Below, piece after piece: positions 4,717-47,354 of a stretch of 64,000 nt of DNA. Source of the DNA: Thermoplasmata archaeon (lineage in GTDB: Archaea > Thermoplasmatota > Thermoplasmata > Lutacidiplasmatales > UBA184). Within the stretch, counting starts at the first letter, position 1, and every line of letters begins with the position of its first letter. The DNA is taken from assembly GCA_022749815.1 (NCBI GenBank), contig JAKIWV010000003.1:158048-222047 (forward strand), read 5' to 3'. Made by a program: the position numbers and the translations under genes. The notes under the pieces were generated by a model that had not been told where the DNA came from, searched no databases, and saw only the letters and a list, made by a program, of their open reading frames with translations.

Positions 4717-5948
4717 TTCGCATCCCCCTCGATGATCCCGTGACCGATAAGTCGCCAGGCGTTAAACTTCCGGGAGATCGCGACCCGGCTCCCTGGAAAG
4801 ACAGTGACCGGCCGGGCGAGATGGATCTCGATCTCGTCGCCCCGAGCGCTCGTGACCTTGCCGGGCGCGACCGTCGTCCCGACGTTGAGCGATACGAGCT
4901 CGTTGGAGCGGATCTTTTCGACTTTCACCTCTTTCTGGACGCCGACGACCCGGTCCAAGAGCGTCACATTGACCCGTACCTTCTGGGTTACGGGTGGAAG
5001 CGTTTCGGTAGTGCCGATGAGCCGGCCCATGAGCGCGTCGGCTTTCGTGTACGAGGGGTCGAGTGTGGTCCCAACGGCGGCGAGCCCGCCCGGGTGAAGC
5101 TCCTCGAGCTCGTTCCCGCCGGAGACGAGCGACGTGATCTCGGTGTGGATCTCCGAGGGGTGGCCGTCGGTCGCTCCCGTGAGCCCCGGCCGGAGCTCGA
5201 TCTCGTCGCCGACCCGGAGCCGCCCCTGGAGCAGCGAGCCGCCGAGGACGCCGCCTCGGAGGTCGCCGGGCCGCGTTCCCGGCTTGTTCACGTCAAAGGA
5301 CCGCGCGATGTACATGAGGGGCGGCTTGGAGGCGTCGCGCCGCGGAGTGGGGATCGTGCGCTCGATCGTGTCGATGAGGGCATCGATGTTGACTTTGTGG
5401 TTGGCCGAGATCGGCACGATCGGAGCGCCTTGAATCGGGCTGCCCTGAAGGAATGTCGTGATCTGGCGGAAATTCTCCATCGCTTGTTCGGCCGTCAGGA
5501 GGTCGATCTTGTTCTGGACCACCACGACCTTTCGGACGCCGATGATGTCGAGGGCGTACAGGTGTTCCCGCGTCTGGGGCTGGGGCACTGGTTCGTTGGC
5601 CGCGATCAGCAGGAGGGCTCCGTCCATCAATGCCGCCCCCGACAGCATCGTCGCCATCAGGGCTTCGTGGCCGGGTGCGTCGACGAAAGAGACGGCGCGG
5701 ACGAACTTCGCCTCGTCGCCGCAGATCGGGCACCTCGGTTCGACCGTGTACCCCGCGGGCGCCTCGTGCTTCGGGCACTTGTAGAACGCGGCGTCCGCGT
5801 AACCGAGCTTGATCGAGATGCCCCGCTTCAGTTCCTCGGAGTGGCGGTCGGTCCATTCGCCGGTGAGGGTCTGGGTGAGGGTGGTCTTTCCGTGGTCGAC
5901 GTGGCCCACGAGACCGATATTGACCTCGGGTTGCTTGGGGACCCTCAT
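4713..5948 (-). CDS. eif2g: translation initiation factor aIF2 gamma subunit
   Basis: GHVDHGKTTL G1 motif, zinc knuckle CPKH...CPICG, DAPGHE, NKIDL; 411 aa from Met182 of the long ORF. Confidence 0.9.
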   Translation of the reverse strand: MRVPKQPEVNIGLVGHVDHGKTTLTQTLTGEWTDRHSEELKRGISIKLGYADAAFYKCPKHEAPAGYTVEPRCPICGDEAKFVRAVSFVDAPGHEALMATMLSGAALMDGALLLIAANEPVPQPQTREHLYALDIIGVRKVVVVQNKIDLLTAEQAMENFRQITTFLQGSPIQGAPIVPISANHKVNIDALIDTIERTIPTPRRDASKPPLMYIARSFDVNKPGTRPGDLRGGVLGGSLLQGRLRVGDEIELRPGLTGATDGHPSEIHTEITSLVSGGNELEELHPGGLAAVGTTLDPSYTKADALMGRLIGTTETLPPVTQKVRVNVTLLDRVVGVQKEVKVEKIRSNELVSLNVGTTVAPGKVTSARGDEIEIHLARPVTVFPGSRVAISRKFNAWRLIGHGIIEGDAK

Positions 5949-6325
5949 CAAGCAGCCGTCAGGAGCTCCGCGAGAGGCTTCGAGCCCTTGGCCTCGACGG
6001 CCAAGTTGACCTGAACCGTGTCCTCGCTGATGGTGTTCCCCCGGAAGGTGCGTCGCTTCCGCATGCCGCGGCGCGGCGCGTGGAACCCAAGTCCGTCCCC
6101 CACCAGCACCCGCATTTGACGCGCGCCCGGAAGATCCGGCCGGAGGGGAAAGCCGCTCTTGTCGGTCCCGCCCGTGATCTTCAACGTGTAGCCGGGCAGT
6201 CCGAGGGCATCTCCCCCGACCGTTTCCCCGATGCGCCGGCCCAAGAGAGCGGAGACCTGCGCGTCCGCAATGGTGCGGGCGTACGATTTCTCCTTCTCGG
6301 AAATCACGGCTTTGAACTCGACCAT
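5948..6325 (-). CDS. rps6e: 30S ribosomal protein S6e
   Basis: ITGGTDKSGFPLRPDLPG ... MRKRRTFRGNTIS; its stop overlaps the aIF2-gamma start (ATGA). Confidence 0.9.
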   Translation of the reverse strand: MVEFKAVISEKEKSYARTIADAQVSALLGRRIGETVGGDALGLPGYTLKITGGTDKSGFPLRPDLPGARQMRVLVGDGLGFHAPRRGMRKRRTFRGNTISEDTVQVNLAVEAKGSKPLAELLTAA

Positions 6326-6363
6326 CGTCCTCAGAACGGAGCGGGGCGGCCAGCAGGGGGCCG

Positions 6364-6370
6364 TTTAAAA
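6364..6370 (-). promoter_or_regulatory. TATA-like box (TTTTAAA on minus strand) ~39 nt upstream of the S6e ATG; GAGG SD-like element 4-7 nt before the ATG
   Basis: Only AT-rich heptamer in the divergent intergenic region 6326-6475. Confidence 0.35.
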
Positions 6371-6475
6371 GCGTGTCGTGGCGCGATGGAGCGCTATCGA
6401 TAGAAGCGGTCCGCCCGGGCCCGGTCCGCCCTCCCCTCTTAAGTGCCGGGCGTCTGCTCACGCTGTCCGACCGTA

Positions 6476-7396
6476 ATGCTCTCCATCCCACCGACCGCGC
6501 TGTTCGCCGCCGAGGCCATGATCCTGCTCGGAGGTCTCGGATTCGCGGCGTACCAGGATTGGAAACTTCGCGAAGTCGCCGACGAGATTTGGCAGGGCAT
6601 GGCAGTGCTCGGCGCCGTCGTGGGCTTCCTCGCCTTCTTGGGTAACTCCCTCGCGCTGTTCCTCTGGGCGCTGGTGAGCCTGTGGGTGTGGGAGCATCTG
6701 TTTCCCTGGGATGCGGTGCTCGAGAAGTACCCGGAGCGACTCCCCGGGGCGATCGAGATCGGGATCTACGTGGGGGTTCTCGCCGTCCTGATCGCGTGCG
6801 CCCTGGCGTTCGGCGTGGGCGGGACCGGAGTCCCCGTCGCGATTCTCGCCGTCGCCGTCTCGATCCTTCTCGCCCGAGGGCTGTTCGAAGTGGGGGTCCT
6901 CTACGGAGGCGCGGACGCGAAGGCCCTGATGGTGGCTGGGCTGTTGTTGCCCCTCGATTCCATGCCCCTGTGGTCTCCGTCGACGATCACGCCACTTCTC
7001 GCGTACTACCCATTCGCCCTGACGCTCCTCATCGACGCGGCGCTCTTCGCCGTCGTCGTTCCCATCGCGATCGCCCTACGGAACCTCTCGGTCGGCGAGT
7101 TCACGTTCCCCCGTGGTTTCACTGGATACTATATTCCGGTCGGGGAGCTCCCCCACCGATTCGTCTGGATCAAAGACCCGACGTTCAACGGGACCCCCGC
7201 CTCCGAAGAACCCGAGCCGCAGACCACGGAGGAGGACCGGGAACTCCGCCAACGTCAGGCCGATGAGCTCGCCAAGCAGGGGGTGAACCGGGTCTGGGTC
7301 ACCCCCCAGCTGCCGTTCATTCTCTGGATCCTGGCGGGCGCGGTCGCGGCGCTCATTGCCGGGAATCTAGTCTTTGACCTCGTCGGCGCGCTCTAG
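6476..7396 (+). CDS. archaeal prepilin/preflagellin peptidase (A24 family, FlaK/PibD-like)
   Basis: Polytopic membrane protein with the conserved GGADAKAL aspartyl-protease motif and an upstream Asp (YQDWK). Confidence 0.7.
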
Positions 7397-39267: not shown

Positions 39268-39377
39268 GGGCCTGTAGCTTAGCCGGGACAAAGCACTGGC
39301 CTTCTAAGCCAGCGAACTCGGGTTCAAAGGTCGGGGGGAAGTGACCTTCCCCCCGACGGAAACTCCCGACAGGCCCG
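39268..39377 (+). tRNA. tRNA-Arg (anticodon TCT) with ~35-nt intron inserted in the T-loop (non-canonical position ~59/60)
   Basis: Acceptor GGGCCTG/CAGGCCC, U8A9, D-arm GCTT-AGCCGGGACA-AAGC, anticodon arm CTGGC-CTTCTAA-GCCAG, V-loop CGAAC, T-stem TCGGG...CCCGA with T-loop TTCAAAG interrupted by a 12-bp GC hairpin plus GGAAACT. Confidence 0.55.
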
Positions 39378-39385
39378 CCCGACCT

Positions 39386-40459
39386 TCAGGTCGAGCCGGC
39401 GCTCCCGACGAGCGCGGTGCATTTCGCGCAGAGAATCCCCCGGGGGCCGGGTGGAATCAGATCCCCGCACAGCGGACACGTCGCCCGAGCATCCGCCGCG
39501 GCGAGGAGCTCCGCGACGCTCGTACGGAGCAACGGGTTCGCCGGCTGCCCCGTCGGCGTCCGCTCGGTCCGGGGGCGATCCGGCGCCGGAACGACCGCTT
39601 CCAGGTTGGGGCGATACTGTCCGCTCGGCCGGTCCACGGTGACGAGCCCCCGGTCCCTCAGAGTTTCGAGGCTCGAGGTCGCGCGCTCGCGCACCCCGCC
39701 GAACAGCGGCGCCAGGTCGATGGCCGAGACGCCCCGGGTCTCGAACACCACTTCGAGGGCGCGGGCGTTTGGCAAGGAGACCTCCCCCCTGGCGACGTAT
39801 CGATCGACGGCGTGGGCAATCCGCGACGAGCGGCGAACGTGCGCCACGCCGCGGAGGCGGCCGTGTCGAAGGTCAGGGAGCAGACCGTTGTCGATGAGGT
39901 CGAGCTCGAAGCGGATCCGTTCCTCGGCGAGATACAACAGCACCGCGGTGGAAAACGGGACGACCCCGGTCTGTCGCACGAACTGGGCCCACATCGAGAG
40001 CGTGAACAGGTCGGCCCGGGGCGCGGCCGCCGGGACGCCACGGGTGGCTTCGCCGTCCTGGATCGCCGACCGGGGCAAGTACGTCTCGCGGAGGAGCAGC
40101 CGGGCCACGCCCCGCACGGGAGTCGCGCGGGAGCCCAGCGGGAGGATCGTCGCCGCGCCCTCCTTCTCTAGGGTCAGCGACCGGGCCGGCCGGAGAAACT
40201 CCCAGGCGGGGTCGGTCTCCGACGCCTCGGGGAACTCGAGCGTCAGCTGGGCGAAAGGGGTCGGCGTCAGGATGGCGTGCAGGAGCGATGGGTAGGCCGT
40301 CCCGTCGACCTGCGCCACGAACGGGGTCAGCTTCTCGCGCCGCCGGGCCCGGTACTCTTCGAGGGCCCGGTCCAGCGCGCGCTCGGAGTACTTGTCGTGG
40401 AGCTCGACCGCTCCCCGACTGGCGATGGCGTGCAGTTCATCCCGCGAGGCGCCCGTCAC
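39386..40459 (-). CDS. hypothetical protein with winged-helix segment and C-terminal zinc ribbon
   Basis: 357 aa; ...LETLRDRGLVTVDRPSGQYRPN... and C-terminal CPLCG...CAKC; no family recognised. Confidence 0.4.
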   Translation of the reverse strand: MTGASRDELHAIASRGAVELHDKYSERALDRALEEYRARRREKLTPFVAQVDGTAYPSLLHAILTPTPFAQLTLEFPEASETDPAWEFLRPARSLTLEKEGAATILPLGSRATPVRGVARLLLRETYLPRSAIQDGEATRGVPAAAPRADLFTLSMWAQFVRQTGVVPFSTAVLLYLAEERIRFELDLIDNGLLPDLRHGRLRGVAHVRRSSRIAHAVDRYVARGEVSLPNARALEVVFETRGVSAIDLAPLFGGVRERATSSLETLRDRGLVTVDRPSGQYRPNLEAVVPAPDRPRTERTPTGQPANPLLRTSVAELLAAADARATCPLCGDLIPPGPRGILCAKCTALVGSAGST

Positions 40460-41642
40460 GTGGCCTCCGTTCCGCGAGGAGCATCTCGTAGAGGCCCATA
40501 AACCGGGTGGCGGTCCGCTCGATGGAGGCTTCTCGACGCACGTAGTCGATCGCGGCGTGGCGCAGCCGGTCGCGTTCGGTGGTCCCCGCGAGAAGCTCCG
40601 AGATGGCGCCGGACAGGGCGCCCTCGCGATCCGCGGGCACGATTCTCCCGGTGACCCGGTCCTGGATCAGCTCCGCCGGGCCCCCGACATCCAGGGCGAC
40701 GCACGCACAGCCACAGGCCATCGCCTCGAGCAGCGCAAGCGAAGAGGTGTCCGAGGTGGACGGGAGCACGAACAGTTCGGATTGAGACAAGAGGGAGGCC
40801 TTCTCTTCCTCGGCGACGGGTCCGACGTACCGCACGCGGCCCGCCAGCCGGGGGTCGGTGCGGAGCCGCTCCCGGACCCGCGCTTCTTCCGGGCCGGCCC
40901 CGGCGATGAGACCGGCAAAATCCTCGCGTCCACTGAGGTCGACGAGGGCGTCGAGGAATCGGTGCACCCCCTTGTCGATCGTGAGACGTCCGAGGTACGT
41001 CACGAGCGGGACGCCGGGCAGCCCGCACCGCTCCCGCCAGTCCGGCACCTGGAGACCCGGGTGGAACCGGTCCACTTCGATGCCGTTCGGAACGACCTCG
41101 ACGGGCCGGCGGAACGTCTTGCGGCTGTGGTCGACGACCCACTGCCGCGCCGGTATCGACGGGACCGTCGTCATGTCGCATCGGTAGTACGCCCCGAGGG
41201 CGTACCACGAGGCGGCCCGAAAGAAGAGCCGGATGGGCAGGGTCGGCGGGAAGCTCCCTCGCATCTCCCAGACGTTGGTGTGAAACGTGCCGACGAGGGG
41301 TTTCCGGAGATGCCGGGCCGCGAGGAACGCCGTGCTGCCCATGATCCCTGGCGTGTGCAGATGGATCATGTCGAACCGACGGAAGTTGTGCCCCCGAAGC
41401 TGGGCGAACGGGAACAGGCCCCAGCGATACTGGCCGTACAGAGGGACGGGCAGCGACCGGCTGCGAACGATGGTGACGCCGTCGGCTCCCTCCTCGTCCG
41501 TCGGGGGACCTGCGGATGGGCTGGGAGCGAAGACGGTCACCGGGTGGCCCAGACCGGTCAGCTCCCGCGCGAGCGCGCTCGTGACCGTCGCCACGCCGTC
41601 GCGGGTCGGAAGATAACTGTCCGTGAAGAACGCGACCTCCAT
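40437..41642 (-). CDS. family 4 glycosyltransferase (GT-B, glycosyl transferase group 1)
   Basis: N-terminal MEVAFFTDSYLPTRDGVA and C-terminal E...LEAMACGCACVA motif of GT4 enzymes. Confidence 0.75.
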   Translation of the reverse strand: MEVAFFTDSYLPTRDGVATVTSALARELTGLGHPVTVFAPSPSAGPPTDEEGADGVTIVRSRSLPVPLYGQYRWGLFPFAQLRGHNFRRFDMIHLHTPGIMGSTAFLAARHLRKPLVGTFHTNVWEMRGSFPPTLPIRLFFRAASWYALGAYYRCDMTTVPSIPARQWVVDHSRKTFRRPVEVVPNGIEVDRFHPGLQVPDWRERCGLPGVPLVTYLGRLTIDKGVHRFLDALVDLSGREDFAGLIAGAGPEEARVRERLRTDPRLAGRVRYVGPVAEEEKASLLSQSELFVLPSTSDTSSLALLEAMACGCACVALDVGGPAELIQDRVTGRIVPADREGALSGAISELLAGTTERDRLRHAAIDYVRREASIERTATRFMGLYEMLLAERRPRDGRLAG

Positions 41643-41667: not shown

Positions 41668-42435
41668 TCAGCTCACGATATTAAACGAGCGCTGGAGTCG
41701 GCGAAGGTCTCGTTCCTCGAGAGTCCCGGGGTCGACCGACGCGACGAACGCCGAGCCGGTCCGCGCCACCTGGGCCGTGACGAAGTTGACGAACTTGAGG
41801 GTCGTGTCGAGGGAATACTCGGTGCTCATCACCTCCACCGCGTCCAAGTAGACGAGGACGCCGCCCAGCGCTTCGGTCGCTTCCTTGATCCGTCCCCCCA
41901 GCCCGCTGGGGTCGAGCTCACCTTCCGAGGCGCCGAGGCCGGGGCTGGGGAGAGCCAGCCGAAGTACTTCGACACGACTTCGGGGCACGCCGGCAAACTC
42001 CGGGGGGTTGGTGGTCACGCATAGGATGCGGGCGTATTCCCCCCCCGAGCGGCCCACGAAAGCGAGGGCGTGCCGGGGCCGGTCCTCGCGGAACAGGTAG
42101 CTGCCCCCACGGGCGAGACGAGGCATCGTCTCCGGTTCCGGCCGATTGGTCGCCGGCGGTCGAAGCAGCGCGCCCCAGGCGGGGCGTCGGGGGGGGCCGA
42201 GCAGGTTCCGGCGCTTCCCGGAGACGTCCTCCCGGATTCGGGCGAGCCGGCTCTCCACGAGCACACGGATCTCCCCGACCGTGTGGCCTCGGCCGACGTG
42301 CGAGAGCACCTCACGGAACGCCTCGCGCAGTCCCTCGCCGTATCCTTCGGAATAGGCATCGGCGTATTGTTCGTCGGGCGGGGCCGCGTCGCCGGCAGAC
42401 GATGCCGACGACGGCTCCGGGGCGGGCTCTGTCAC
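41668..42435 (-). CDS. DUF835 domain protein (KaiC/RecA-like-fold archaeal domain)
   Basis: C-terminal ...ILCVTTNPPE...GGVLVYLDAVEVMSTEYSLDTTLKFVNFV...ASVDPGTLEERDLRRL resembles DUF835; GTG start overlaps the DUF35 stop (GTGA). Confidence 0.5.
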   Translation of the reverse strand: MTEPAPEPSSASSAGDAAPPDEQYADAYSEGYGEGLREAFREVLSHVGRGHTVGEIRVLVESRLARIREDVSGKRRNLLGPPRRPAWGALLRPPATNRPEPETMPRLARGGSYLFREDRPRHALAFVGRSGGEYARILCVTTNPPEFAGVPRSRVEVLRLALPSPGLGASEGELDPSGLGGRIKEATEALGGVLVYLDAVEVMSTEYSLDTTLKFVNFVTAQVARTGSAFVASVDPGTLEERDLRRLQRSFNIVS

Positions 42436-42926
42436 GCTCGGGCGCGCGAGGGCTCCGGGGCATGGGACGCGGCCGGAGCCTGTTCGGACCCTCGACCCGG
42501 TCTCGGAGCCATCGCGGCTTCCTCCTTGGGGGCAAACTTGTATCCGTAGTGGATGACCCCGGCCGGACCTTCCTCCCGAAGCTTCCGGAACGTCGCGCGA
42601 ACCTTGAGCCCGATCTGCAGGTCCTCGGGCCGGAGATTCACGACCTGGCCGGTAAGAAGGGGTCCCTCCACGGTTTGGACGATCGCCAGGGCGTAGGGCA
42701 CCAGCATTTCGAACCCGTTGGCCGCCTCGTGGACGACGGTGAAGGTCACGACCTCGCCGTCGCCCGACAGCTGGAACGGTTCCATCTTTCCGAGCGATTG
42801 GCGATGGGTCGTGCAGGTCGGGCAGACGCTCCGGGGCGGGAAGTAGACGGTCGTGCAGACCGTGCACCGGGAGCCGCCCAGGTTGTATCGGCGCGGAGTC
42901 TCTCGCCAGAAACGTGCGATCGCCAT
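42432..42926 (-). CDS. DUF35 zinc-ribbon/OB-fold protein (scaffold of archaeal thiolase-HMGCS complex)
   Basis: CTVCTTVYFPPRSVCPTCTT rubredoxin-like ribbon followed by an OB fold. Confidence 0.7.
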   Translation of the reverse strand: MAIARFWRETPRRYNLGGSRCTVCTTVYFPPRSVCPTCTTHRQSLGKMEPFQLSGDGEVVTFTVVHEAANGFEMLVPYALAIVQTVEGPLLTGQVVNLRPEDLQIGLKVRATFRKLREEGPAGVIHYGYKFAPKEEAAMAPRPGRGSEQAPAASHAPEPSRARA

Positions 42927-42936
42927 GGTTCCTCCG

Positions 42937-44106
42937 TCAGTTCACCCTCTCCACGATCGTGACGACGCTCGTCGCACCCGTCCCACCGACGCTATGGGCC
43001 AGCCCCACTTGCGCGCCAGCGACCTGCCGGTCCTTCGCGTCGCCCCGCAGCTGCCGGACAAGTTCGACGACCTGGGCGACTCCGACGGCCCCGAAGGGCC
43101 GCCCCTGGGCCTTGAGGCCGCCCGAGGTGTTGATCTGCGTCGTTCCCTTCCCGAAGAACCGCCCGTCGCGCATCGCGAGACCGGCCTCTCCCTTGGCCAC
43201 GAAGCCTAGATCCTCGAGCGCGACCAGACCTCCGATCGAGTAGGCGTCGTCGATCTCTGCGACCTGCACGTCGGTGGGCTTGTGCCGCGCCTGGGAGAAG
43301 GCGCGAGTGCCGGCCACCGCGGTCGAGTCGAGCGTCGTGAGGTCTCGGCGATGATGGAGGGCCATCGTGTCGCACGCGACCTGGCTCGCCGCGATCTTCA
43401 CCGGAGTGTCCGTGTACTTGCGCGCGCTCTCGAGCGGTCCCAGCAGGACGGCCGCCGCGCCGTCCGATAGCGGCGCACAATCCAGGAGACCGAGCGGGTC
43501 GGCGACGATGCCGGAGTTGATCACTTGTTCGAGGCTGACCTTGTTCCGGAAATGCGCGAGCGGATTCTTGGAGGCCATCAAGTGGTCGTGCACGGGTAAC
43601 GCCGCCAGATCTTCTCGACGGGTACCGTACTCGTGCATGTGCTTCCGGGCGATCATCGCCCAGAGCGCCGGCAGCGTCGCGCCGAAGACGAGCTCCCATT
43701 CCGTATCGGCCGTCGCATCGACGATCCGGCTCGCTTCGGTGTCCGAGACATCGGTCATCTTCTCCGCGCCGCCGACGACGACGAAATCGTACGCCCCGCT
43801 CGCGACCGCCAAGTACCCTTCGTGGAGGGCCATCGCTCCGGACGCGCCGCCCGCCTCCACCCGGATCGCCGGGAGGTGGTGGCTCGCGAGGCCCGCGTAG
43901 TCCAAGATGAGCGGCGCGATGTGCTCCTGCTCAAGGAACGCGCCGCTCGCCATGTTGCCAAGATACAGCGCCCCGAGGTCGCGGGAGGAGAGCTTCCCAT
44001 CGACGAGAGCCTGAAAGCCGGCTTCGATGCCGATCTCCCGGAACGAGCGGTCCCACAGCTCGCCAAACTTGGTCATGCCGATGCCGAGGATCGCGACGTC
44101 GCGCAC
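42937..44106 (-). CDS. archaeal-type acetoacetyl-CoA thiolase (SCP-x-like)
   Basis: MRDVAILGIGMTKFGE...; thiolase-like fold with catalytic Cys (IDDAYSIGG...). Confidence 0.8.
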   Translation of the reverse strand: MRDVAILGIGMTKFGELWDRSFREIGIEAGFQALVDGKLSSRDLGALYLGNMASGAFLEQEHIAPLILDYAGLASHHLPAIRVEAGGASGAMALHEGYLAVASGAYDFVVVGGAEKMTDVSDTEASRIVDATADTEWELVFGATLPALWAMIARKHMHEYGTRREDLAALPVHDHLMASKNPLAHFRNKVSLEQVINSGIVADPLGLLDCAPLSDGAAAVLLGPLESARKYTDTPVKIAASQVACDTMALHHRRDLTTLDSTAVAGTRAFSQARHKPTDVQVAEIDDAYSIGGLVALEDLGFVAKGEAGLAMRDGRFFGKGTTQINTSGGLKAQGRPFGAVGVAQVVELVRQLRGDAKDRQVAGAQVGLAHSVGGTGATSVVTIVERVN

Positions 44107-44108
44107 CG

Positions 44109-45161
44109 TCAGGCCTCCCCCATATGGATCTTGCCCCGGAACTTCGCGTAGACCGAATACGAAAGTTCGACGCCGCTGTCCAGGAAGTATTGCACCGGCA
44201 GGCCGGAGGATCGGTCGTAGGTCCCGAGCTCTTCCGTAACCGTCAGGTCGAAGGCATCCGAACCGGCGCCCGAGCCGTACCCGACGACGAGGATCCGCTC
44301 GCCGGCCTCCCCGTGGTCGAGGACGTTGGCCAGCCCGATGAGAGCCGCCGCGGAGTACGTGTTACCGATCCGGGGGGTGACCATTCCGTATTTCATCTGC
44401 TCGTCCGAGAACCCGAGTTGGGTCCCGATCCGCCGGGGGAACTTGCCGTTCGGTTGGTGGAACACCACATGCTGGTAGTCCTTGGTCGTCGTGCCGGCCG
44501 TCTTGAACATCTGCTTCGCGCATTCCCCCACGTGACGGAAGTACGCCGGTTCGCCGGTGAACCGGCCCCCGTGGCTCGGGTAGCGCTGACCTTCCCGGCG
44601 CCAGAAATCCGGCGTGTCCGTAGTATACGAGACGGTCTGGTTGATCGTCGCGATGACCTTGTCGCGGCCGATGACGAGGGCCGCGCCCCCCGCGCTGGCG
44701 GAGTACTCGAGCGCGTCGCCCGGGGCCCCCTGAGAAGTATCGGTGCCGATCGCCACGCCATACTTGACCATCCCAGAACGAACCAGGCCGAGGCAGGTCT
44801 GGATCGCCGCCGTGCCCGCCTTGCAGGCGAACTCGAAATCGGCGGCGGTCAGGTTCGGAGTCGCTCCCACCGCGTGAGCCACGATTGTTGCCGTGGGCTT
44901 CACGGCGTACGGGTGGGATTCGCTTCCGACGTACAGGGCTCCGATCTCCTGAGGGTCAATCTTTCCGCGGAGGAGGGCGACCCGGAGCGCCTCGGTACTG
45001 ATCGTGATGGTGTCCTCGTCGGGCGCGGGGACGCTCTTGCGCTCGATGTTCAGCCCTTGCCCCATCGCGACGCCGTCCACCCCCCACACCTGGCCAATCT
45101 CGGCGGGCGTGATGCGGTAGCGGGGGACGTAGACTCCGTAGCTGACGATGCCTGCTTCCAT
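44109..45161 (-). CDS. hydroxymethylglutaryl-CoA synthase
   Basis: [14 protein letters not shown]...[10 protein letters not shown] (active Cys)...HQPNGKFP. Confidence 0.85.
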
Positions 45162-45177: not shown

Positions 45178-45855
45178 TCACAACTCTTCGAGGCGGCGTA
45201 GGACGTCGCCGGGGCCGAGCGAGGTGGCCAGCAACGGGATGTTCTCCACCTCGCTCAAACGGATGGCGAGGGGGTCGATCCGGCCGGGATTCGAAAAGAT
45301 GACCGCGGCCGGCTTGAGGGGATGGGCGCGCACGGCGACCATGGGGGATCGGCCGTACTTGACGTTGGAGAAGATCAATGCCCGTTGGGTGGTCCATCCG
45401 TAGACCTCGACGAATCGCGATGCATCCATCGACAGGATCGCTCGCGGGGCGTCGAGCAAGGTGTACCCGTGGATATCGCGGAGCAGGTCGACGCTGCTCG
45501 CGGGCTTGGCTTCGAGAAGGTCGGCGACCGACTTGAGGGGGATCGCCACGGCGAACTCGCGCATCCCCAAGATCCCCTCGGTGTGGGGTCGGCTCCCCAG
45601 ACGTTGGGCGATGCGCCGGCCGTTTCGCACATCGATATCGAGCAGGGCATCGACATAGCGCCGGATGAACGTCGCGCCCGGACTCGCCCGGCGCTCGGAC
45701 TCGTAGTCGGAGATCACCGACGGAACGGTGTCGAGCGTCTTCGAGAGTTCGCGCTGGGAGACCTGGAACCCCTCCCGCCACTTCCGAAGCGTCCGACCAG
45801 GATGCGGGGAGAGGACCACTTCGCCCGCGATCTTTTCGCGTAGCTCCGCCGCCAC
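45178..45855 (-). CDS. HTH (XRE/Cro-C1 type) transcriptional regulator, COG1395-like; start uncertain (GTG)
   Basis: [41 protein letters not shown]_3 motif plus a C-terminal domain of unknown function; the upstream part of the ORF is Ser/Arg junk overlapping a plus-strand gene. Confidence 0.5.
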
Positions 45856-46171
45856 GGCCGGCCGACTCCCGAACTCGTATAAGGTCTTGGTCCCCCATGT
45901 CGTCCGAAGGGTTCGACACCCATCGAAATCTCCCCCGAGAACGAACTCGGAAAAGGGAGTGGACCGGGCGAGAACTTCCGGCCCCGGGGGGCGGGCCCCT
46001 GAGCCCTTTGAACTCGCGACCTCTACCTTGCCAAGGTAGCGATCTTCCGCTGATCTACCGGCCCACGGGGGCGGCGGAGGGTCGCTGGAGAATAAGCTAT
46101 TCGCTGACGAGCACGGGACCGGGAGCAGGCAGGAAAATGTTAATGCGGGCGAGGCCCGTCCGCGCCTACCG

Positions 46172-46531
46172 ATGGCCGAGGACACCTCGATGGGCGAGCC
46201 TATCACCACGCTCCTCAAGGGGAGCCGGGATTTGCTGCGTCCCGAGGAGATCGTTCGCGAGGCGATCCGCGACGTGGTGAAGGACGAGATTCGGCACCAC
46301 CTCGAGAAGACGCTCAAGGACGACCCGAAGCTCGCCCACGATCTGCGGGACGGAGTTCGTGCGCTGCTCGAGGCCCGTGCGTTGGAGTACGCCGCGCTCC
46401 TGCGCGTGGGGGCCCTGACGGCCCGCCTCGGTCTGGCCGCCGTTCCCCCCGAGCTCCGGAGCAAGCTCACCAGCGAGGTTGTCGAGCTGTTCAGCCGGGA
46501 ACTGGGTCAGATCGTCGAGAAGTCGCTCTGA
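46172..46531 (+). CDS. hypothetical alpha-helical protein
   Basis: 119 aa, charged helical repeats (EIVREAIRDVVKDEIRHHLEKTLKDDPKLAHDLRDGV...); ends 11 nt before the PAC2 gene. Confidence 0.4.
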   Translation: MAEDTSMGEPITTLLKGSRDLLRPEEIVREAIRDVVKDEIRHHLEKTLKDDPKLAHDLRDGVRALLEARALEYAALLRVGALTARLGLAAVPPELRSKLTSEVVELFSRELGQIVEKSL

Positions 46532-46541
46532 GTTCCTCCCC

Positions 46542-47354
46542 ATGCTGCCGGACGAAGTGCGAATCTACGAGATCAAGCGGGTCGACGTCGAGGGCGCGAT
46601 CGTCCTCGACGGATTCCCCTCGGTGGGCCTCGTGAGCTCGATCGTCGCGAACTACTTGATCGACACGCTCGAGATGGAACAGATCGGGATCGTCGAATGC
46701 CCCTCCTTCCCCACGGTCTCGTTGGTACGGGATGGCAAGCCGCAGCATCCGGTGCGGATCTATTCGGGTACGCCGCCCCCGGGGCGGAACGGCCGGGTCG
46801 CTGACCGGATCGTGGCGTTTATTTCGGAGTTCCAGCCGCCGCCCAACGTCATCCACCCTCTCGCCACGGCCATCCTCAATTGGGTCCAAGAACAGCGCTG
46901 CGGTCTTCTCGTCTCCCCGGAAGGACTGGTCGTTGAACCGGCGCCGGGGGTCAAGGACCACCGGCGGGCCTCAAAGGTACCGGAGGTCCGGGTCTACGGC
47001 ATCGCCAGCACGCGCCGGGCCCAGGAGCTCTATATCGAGCCCAACGTGACGCCCTTCATGGAGGGCGTGATTACGGGCATCGCCGGTGTGCTGCTCAACG
47101 AAGGGCGACGCCGGGGCTTCGATGTGCTGACCTTCCTCGCCGAGGCGAACCCCGAGTACCCCGACGCTCGAGCCGCCGCCAAGATCATCGACACGATCAA
47201 TCATATCCTGCTGCGATCGAGTCTCGATCCCGAACCGTTGATCCGCGAGGCGGAGCGGATCGAGCAACAGCTGCTGACGATCCAGCGCTCCGCTCAGGAG
47301 CATCCCCGGCCCGAGCGGCCCGCCATTCATCAGTCGGCGCCGATGTATCGGTAG
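46542..47354 (+). CDS. PAC2-family proteasome assembly chaperone (PbaA/PbaB-like) with C-terminal HbYX motif
   Basis: IVLDGFPSVGLVSSIVANYLID core motif; C-terminus ...SAPMYR (hydrophobic-Tyr-X). Confidence 0.65.
   Translation: MLPDEVRIYEIKRVDVEGAIVLDGFPSVGLVSSIVANYLIDTLEMEQIGIVECPSFPTVSLVRDGKPQHPVRIYSGTPPPGRNGRVADRIVAFISEFQPPPNVIHPLATAILNWVQEQRCGLLVSPEGLVVEPAPGVKDHRRASKVPEVRVYGIASTRRAQELYIEPNVTPFMEGVITGIAGVLLNEGRRRGFDVLTFLAEANPEYPDARAAAKIIDTINHILLRSSLDPEPLIREAERIEQQLLTIQRSAQEHPRPERPAIHQSAPMYR

Follow-up and report, generated by a model that had tools for sequence, protein, structure and literature searches.

The DNA analysed here, a stretch of 64,000 nucleotides (nt) from a Thermoplasmata archaeon (contig JAKIWV010000003.1) referred to below as the window, carries on its minus strand a compact set of genes that lead into the mevalonate pathway, on which archaea depend entirely for their membrane lipids. 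Three of these genes specify HMG-CoA synthase (HMGCS, 44109–45161, 350 residues), the archaeal acetoacetyl-CoA thiolase (42937–44106, 389 residues) and a DUF35 scaffold protein (42432–42926, 164 residues) which possesses a zinc ribbon and an OB fold [Pfam zf-ChsH2 and OB_ChsH2_C]. They are preceded by a gene for an XRE-type helix-turn-helix (HTH) regulator (45178–45855, GTG start, 225 residues), the first cistron, which lies 16 nt ahead of HMGCS. They are followed by a final cistron (41668–42435, 255 residues), the product of which combines a helical N-terminal domain with a C-terminal domain of the DUF835, or inactivated KaiC-like (iKaiC), type. This last gene, here called the iKaiC gene, and its attachment to the DUF35 gene are the subject of this analysis.

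The assignment of the HMGCS-thiolase-DUF35 trio to mevalonate entry had been made in an earlier note on this DNA, and it is borne out by database comparison. HMGCS passed the cutoffs of two NCBIfam equivalogs [NF003274, 531.7 bits, cutoff 244; TIGR00748, 519.4 bits, cutoff 353], as did the thiolase that of NF004720 [496.6 bits, cutoff 420]. For each of the three proteins the top match in the Protein Data Bank (PDB) was a chain of 6ESQ/6ET9: HMGCS [6esq_I, 1.8e-140], the thiolase [6esq_A, 3.1e-103] and DUF35 [6esq_E, 1.3e-34], the alignment of the last being limited to residues 3–134. In the window 2 nt separate HMGCS from the thiolase gene and 10 nt the thiolase gene from DUF35, and all the intergenic gaps within the operon are of 49 nt or less.

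The DUF35/iKaiC junction

The DUF35 gene ends with a TGA codon at 42432–42434 and the iKaiC gene begins with a GTG codon at 42433–42435, so that the two share four nucleotides on the minus strand (GTGA, 42432–42435); across the junction the window reads ...cga gcG TGA cag... The earlier note had described a fourth gene placed directly after DUF35 with its GTG laid over the TGA by 4 nt, and these coordinates agree with that description. A single overlap of 4 nt is commonplace.

Related loci were collected by a scan that took one genome per species, which gave 39 loci from soil, peat and acid sulfate soil. Of 51 related DUF35/iKaiC junctions 47 retain the overlap of four nucleotides (−4), and the hexamer GCGTGA is conserved in 35 of 36 genome loci. 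The other junctions vary, that between HMGCS and the thiolase from −4 to +9, that between the thiolase and DUF35 from +1 to +49, and that between iKaiC and the downstream GT4 glycosyltransferase gene from +4 to more than 2000. The first base of iKaiC codon 2 is always A, although the residue which this codon specifies may be T, S, N or R. The constancy of the base despite the varying residue suggests selection on the stop/start overlap itself.

The initiation signals of the two genes differ as well. The start codon is GTG in all 48 iKaiC loci and ATG in 44 of 45 DUF35 genes, and a Shine-Dalgarno sequence of at least 4 nt precedes iKaiC in only three of 48 loci, versus 42 of 45 for DUF35. The pair therefore presents the features by which coupled overlapping genes are recognised, namely a stop/start overlap on one strand and a downstream gene without an independent ribosome-binding site. 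Co-expression of iKaiC with DUF35 through termination and reinitiation is, as judged from these sequence features, well supported.

On the upstream side of the junction DUF35 extends 28–34 residues past the end of its solved homologue. In the window this Pro/Ala-rich tail of ~30 residues occupies codons 42435–42524 (minus strand); its sequence is variable and its A-x-A-stop end is constant. The claim that GTGA junctions are used throughout this genome found only rough support, in that two further overlaps in the window, at ~57001 (plus strand) and ~32819 (minus strand), were indicated by a crude gene call based on third-codon-position G+C (GC3).

The 255-residue protein

The iKaiC gene product is identical to NCBI MCI4353193.1, entered as "DUF835 domain-containing protein [Thermoplasmata archaeon]". 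It has 219 homologues, 255 residues being the commonest length. The search against Pfam DUF835 [PF05763] which the earlier note had proposed gave a divided result. Homology is upheld, since the family is matched by 19 of 19 members (best E = 9e-11), but the window protein itself [3.4e-7, 30.6 bits] falls under the gathering score of 33.1 bits and matches only positions 64–136 of the 136 in the hidden Markov model. Residues 128–252 match DUF7504 [PF24336] at 29.2 bits, above the cutoff of 27, as do 10 of the 19 members. With hhalign the alignment to canonical DUF835 proteins runs over 229 columns [99.94%, 1.7e-36]; the canonical CIxRTxP and WLT motifs are lost in the window protein.

An AlphaFold2 model calculated from 19 homologues, with a mean predicted local distance difference test score (pLDDT) of 79, places disordered sequence at residues 1–18, helices at 20–48, 53–65 and 67–79, a disordered linker at 80–110 and a confidently modelled alpha/beta domain at 111–255. 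A helical N-terminal domain joined to a DUF835-like C-terminal domain had been anticipated, and both the modelled helices and the PF05763 match are in keeping with this.

The N-terminal helical-hairpin domain (residues ~20–80, 42196–42378, minus strand), delimited by the alignments and the AlphaFold2 model, includes an invariant RGHT loop and is the most conserved part of the protein, with a mean column identity of 74% versus 58% for the whole. When 1.84 billion proteins were searched with a profile of this domain, just 75 representatives came up. Roughly one in five of these is a shorter protein of 61–206 residues; among those for which the sequence was inspected, the majority have 230–280 residues and share the two-domain layout. 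Relatives of the domain were absent from Pfam at E values up to 1, and a PDB profile search gave only noise at E = 0.6. Foldseek against the PDB yielded nothing below E = 5, only generic helical-hairpin structural matches being returned, and no NCBIfam family was matched by the full-length protein. As modelled, the domain is an undescribed helical hairpin.

It is followed, in the predicted disordered region, by a linker motif, PPRRPAWGxLLRPP (residues 81–95, 42151–42195, minus strand). This motif is present in 108 of 120 proteins of the main clade, is degenerate in a sister clade and occurs in none of 83 distant homologues.

The C-terminal DUF835/DUF7504 domain (41671–42108, minus strand) is predicted, with pLDDT above 90, to adopt a RecA/KaiC fold. 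Its Foldseek matches comprise FlaH [4yds], KaiC CI and CII, RecA and RAD51, with E values of 1e-4 to 1e-3, a probability of 1.00 and identities of 7–18%. The Walker A pattern [AG]xxxxGK[ST] is absent from the window protein, the position after strand 1 reading LFREDRP, and the pattern was matched by one of 120 main-clade proteins, none of eight from the sister clade and one of 83 distant homologues. A Walker-B-like motif, VYLDAxE, is conserved (Y196, D198, E201). Since Walker A is lacking, the usual type of ATP binding would not be expected, and the 255-residue product is best described as a conserved KaiC-fold protein without a P-loop, predicted to be non-enzymatic. Pfam detected no REC domain in it. 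DUF835 has been classed as an inactivated KaiC-like domain that serves archaeal response regulators for output or interaction (PMC5847659), and the earlier statement that DUF835 is without assigned function needs correction to that extent.

Gene order and transcription signals

Wherever flanking sequence is available the order is HTH, HMGCS, thiolase, DUF35 and iKaiC, usually then GT4, and 11 metagenome loci display the same arrangement. The HTH gene stands upstream of HMGCS in every locus with enough flank. Of the 39 species-level loci 38 are labelled as Thermoplasmata metagenome-assembled genomes (MAGs) and one as "bacterium"; several bear MAG names that are listed as Lutacidiplasmatales, a group with ~68–69% G+C which consists of one single family (PMC9287336). 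The G+C content of the window is 63–71%.

The sister clade, at 28–37% identity and 62–63% G+C, also keeps the HTH-HMGCS-thiolase-DUF35-iKaiC order, in loci L055, L058, L062 and L063, where the DUF35/iKaiC junctions are +6, +35, +6 and −4, respectively. Its downstream genes are others, encoding a methyltransferase, a geranylgeranyl reductase (GGR) with a ferredoxin, and GT2; GT4 is absent. Adjacency which persists despite changed downstream genes is more telling than conservation within the main clade. The GCGTGA overlap is present in a further lineage, P0143 (L056 and L057), and a metagenome scan with the sister-clade alignment returned main-clade loci only. Recurrence of the arrangement in related genomes, which the earlier note had suggested be surveyed, is thus documented in the species-level, metagenome and sister-clade loci alike.

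Other isoprenoid-lipid genes occur in the vicinity of this family. In L055 (7448–8884) and L058 (5042–6478) GGR_cat and ferredoxin sequences are found one gene past iKaiC in convergent orientation, and L040–L042 have a GGR-like FAD_binding_3 gene at a distance of 2.7 kb on the upstream side. The recurrence is a loose one. In L043, L059, L061 and L064 a homologous gene of the N-helical plus DUF835 type (~5001–6720) is located ~45 nt past PAC2 at the end of an L44e-S27e-eIF2alpha-Nop10-PAC2 cluster; this second recurring context, seen in lower-GC Thermoplasmatota, may be the better clue to the ancestral role of the family.

A TATA-like box, CTTATAC in the window (45877–45883, minus strand) and TTTATA in relatives, precedes the HTH start by 23–30 nt in every one of the 39 main-clade loci and is the putative promoter of the mevalonate-entry operon. 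Its distance from the HTH start would imply a leaderless mRNA for the five-gene operon. The sequence ahead of the iKaiC GTG contains no AT-rich 8-mer in 48 of 49 loci, where the maximum is 2–4 A/T of 8, and the coding strand contains no run of four or more T between 40921 and 45293. An independent promoter or terminator between DUF35 and iKaiC was considered and rejected, since neither element was found.

A second box, TTTAATAT (41678–41685, minus strand), lies within the 3' end of iKaiC, 43 nt ahead of the GT4 ATG. In 17 of 44 loci of 66–74% G+C the identical 8-mer precedes GT4 by 33–45 nt. It encodes F-N-I in the final iKaiC codons and employs the codons TTT and AAT, which are rare in a genome of 68% G+C. 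From its sequence and position it is probably a separate GT4 promoter inside the coding region. With boxes before HTH and GT4, and no promoter- or terminator-like element before iKaiC, the latter looks like the terminal cistron, and we infer a transcription unit composed of HTH, HMGCS, thiolase, DUF35 and iKaiC. Co-expression with the trio, which the earlier note had proposed from the overlap, is made very probable by the conserved GTGA, the invariant GTG, the scarcity of Shine-Dalgarno sequences and the lack of a TATA-like element or oligo-T at this junction.

The HTH protein matches Pfam HTH_19, HTH_31 and HTH_3, while its C-terminal domain of ~150 residues matched no Pfam or NCBIfam family. 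Its start was moved to 45855 because a longer open reading frame (ORF) of 430 residues (45178–46470, minus strand) crosses a tRNA-Ala gene; the apparent tblastn conservation of residues 135–205 of this ORF is due to the tRNA and not to protein. This tRNA-Ala(GGC) (45961–46064, minus strand), which has a G3:U70 pair, and a tRNA-Arg(TCT) (39268–39376, plus strand) are each interrupted within the T-loop, which is not a canonical place for an intron, by a GC-rich hairpin insert of ~32–35 nt. ARAGORN misses both tRNAs when intact and recognises both after removal of the insert following TTCAAA, and Rfam covers only 39268–39326 of the tRNA-Arg(TCT).

Downstream of the unit, 25 nt past the iKaiC gene, the GT4 glycosyltransferase gene (40437–41642, minus strand, 401 residues) was identified through Pfam and NCBIfam matches. 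Its end is overlapped by 23 nt by an ORF of 357 residues (39386–40459, minus strand) which is kept in 34 loci and specifies a terminal CxxC...CxxC; no Pfam family was matched by it.

Possible function and relation to known systems

The reading that we favour, tentatively and with somewhat less than even confidence, is that in this lineage the iKaiC protein assists the mevalonate-entry machinery as an accessory partner, serving as a regulatory or assembly adaptor. Ribosomes which end DUF35 would reinitiate on the iKaiC GTG, and the protein would be made only alongside DUF35, probably at a lower amount. The helical hairpin, the linker peptide or both might then provide the contact with the thiolase/HMGCS/DUF35 complex, or else with the operon's HTH regulator, with the nucleotide-blind KaiC-like domain acting as an oligomerisation or interaction platform and not as an enzyme. 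Reinitiation on a GTG without a Shine-Dalgarno sequence, presumably giving less product than DUF35, would sooner be expected for a regulator or an assembly factor than for a subunit present in stoichiometric amounts. Two derived features match the operon context, namely the PPRRPxWG linker motif and the ~30-residue DUF35 tail. That iKaiC might be a true fourth, substoichiometric subunit of the metabolon, docked through the hairpin and PPRRPAWG, with the dead KaiC-like domain oligomerising or recruiting and the supply of lipid precursors under KaiC-type control, is a more ambitious proposal that we consider doubtful.

A number of observations weigh against such a partnership. The solved complex 6ESQ contains three chain types and needs no fourth. 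In the main clade synteny reaches several genes past the operon on both sides, and because of this and of the relatedness of the genomes adjacency within that clade is weak evidence. Full-length homologues from Methanomassiliicoccales-like genomes (46–49% G+C), firmly related over both domains [hhalign, 99.94%], lie near HMGCS, thiolase or DUF35 in none of eight loci: in four the gene comes after PAC2 in an L44e-S27e-eIF2alpha-Nop10-PAC2 cluster, and in the other four it stands alone, near Alba/DUF166. Homologues located away from mevalonate genes suggest that the ancestral function was not mevalonate-specific. Furthermore, a passenger gene without a Shine-Dalgarno sequence would likewise keep the overlap. 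Given the wide synteny and the eight unlinked loci, the regulatory or assembly role for the complex which the earlier note put forward is not established.

It is quite possible, though short of an even chance, that iKaiC is such a co-expressed passenger, an adaptor with a general housekeeping or signalling task in Thermoplasmatota and functionally unconnected with mevalonate synthesis. The gene would have come to lie behind DUF35 through a rearrangement close to an ancestral neighbourhood of PAC2, after which its own ribosome-binding site was lost and the overlap was retained solely because expression required it. This would account for the homologues which, in other orders, either stand by themselves or come after PAC2 in a housekeeping cluster of mixed content, and it is consistent with the broad main-clade synteny and the self-sufficiency of the three-subunit complex. 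PAC2 moreover adjoins the operon, divergent and just upstream, in the window (46479–47354) and in L056, a hint that the present position derives from a rearranged older PAC2 neighbourhood. One would not, however, expect the adjacency of a passenger to outlive the changed downstream context of the sister clade, and full dependence on DUF35 translation is odd for an unrelated protein; the linker motif and the DUF35 tail, too, are derived and confined to operon-linked lineages.

Two further explanations concern the partner of iKaiC and the manner of its translation. The protein could form with the XRE-type HTH a sensor/effector pair which autoregulates the operon, without being a subunit of the enzyme complex. 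In every operon-linked clade the unit begins with one of the two genes and ends with the other, and archaeal response regulators employ DUF835 as an output domain (PMC5847659), but distant homologues have no such HTH neighbour, the sequence gives no sign of ligand or DNA binding and the C-terminal domain of the HTH protein lacks a family assignment; we think this pairing unlikely. A −1 frameshift or readthrough at GCG-TGA, producing a DUF35-iKaiC fusion that tethers the KaiC-like domain to the complex, appears very improbable. The ~30 disordered residues before the junction and ~20 after it do resemble a split interdomain linker, and in L055 (5992–6003) DUF35 and iKaiC are in the same frame with one TGA and then GTG directly, which could be a readthrough candidate or a mere intermediate state of the junction. 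Yet there is no conserved slippery heptamer, a stop 12–50 nt ahead of the junction blocks the downstream frame in several loci, and plain termination and reinitiation accounts for all the observations. On the first two of these grounds the fusion was rejected as the principal explanation.

To our knowledge the control of entry into the archaeal mevalonate pathway is largely uncharacterised, and we know of no DUF835/iKaiC domain, widespread as these are in archaea, with an experimentally assigned role. An iKaiC gene which, from its sequence, appears to be translated via DUF35 offers a handle on both questions. Were the link to the pathway a true one, DUF835 would for the first time be placed in a functional context and a regulated metabolon would be exemplified; a fourth subunit in particular would mean that the mevalonate pathway is regulated in a way not so far described for archaea. 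If the link is not real, the locus illustrates how a passenger is locked into an operon through loss of its own ribosome-binding site. The literature that we examined contains no account of this operon with a fourth, coupled gene and mentions DUF835 only in a census of response regulators (PMC5847659).

The closest known system is the thiolase/HMGCS/DUF35 channeling complex of Methanothermococcus thermolithotrophicus [6ESQ/6ET9; Vogeli et al. 2018], as cited in PMC12960953. The three upstream genes of the window are clear orthologues of its three subunits and likewise form a tight operon. The differences are that a fourth gene is here coupled to DUF35, that DUF35 bears a C-terminal tail of ~30 residues which the solved 130-residue protein lacks, and that the operon is headed by a gene for an HTH regulator. 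With the REC-DUF835 response regulators (Galperin et al. 2018, PMC5847659) the window protein shares a homologous C-terminal domain, a RecA/KaiC fold without a P-loop; unlike them it has neither REC nor PAS, and in their place a helical hairpin without a Pfam family.

Structurally the nearest matches are proteins of the FlaH/KaiC/RadA type (4yds FlaH, KaiC CI/CII, RecA and RAD51), and the layout of an N-terminal helical domain, a linker and a RecA-like core recalls RadA and DnaB. In contrast to these proteins there is no Walker A, and nothing points to a function in the archaellum or to binding of DNA. The junction resembles the ATGA/GTGA coupling of prokaryotic operons, with a 4-nt overlap on one strand and a downstream gene without a Shine-Dalgarno sequence. 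It is ordinary in kind, but its near-total conservation (47/51) and its nucleotide-level signature stand out. Compared with these systems, what has been found is a known operon in a variant peculiar to one lineage, together with a testable lead on a domain that is widespread; it is not a new kind of system.

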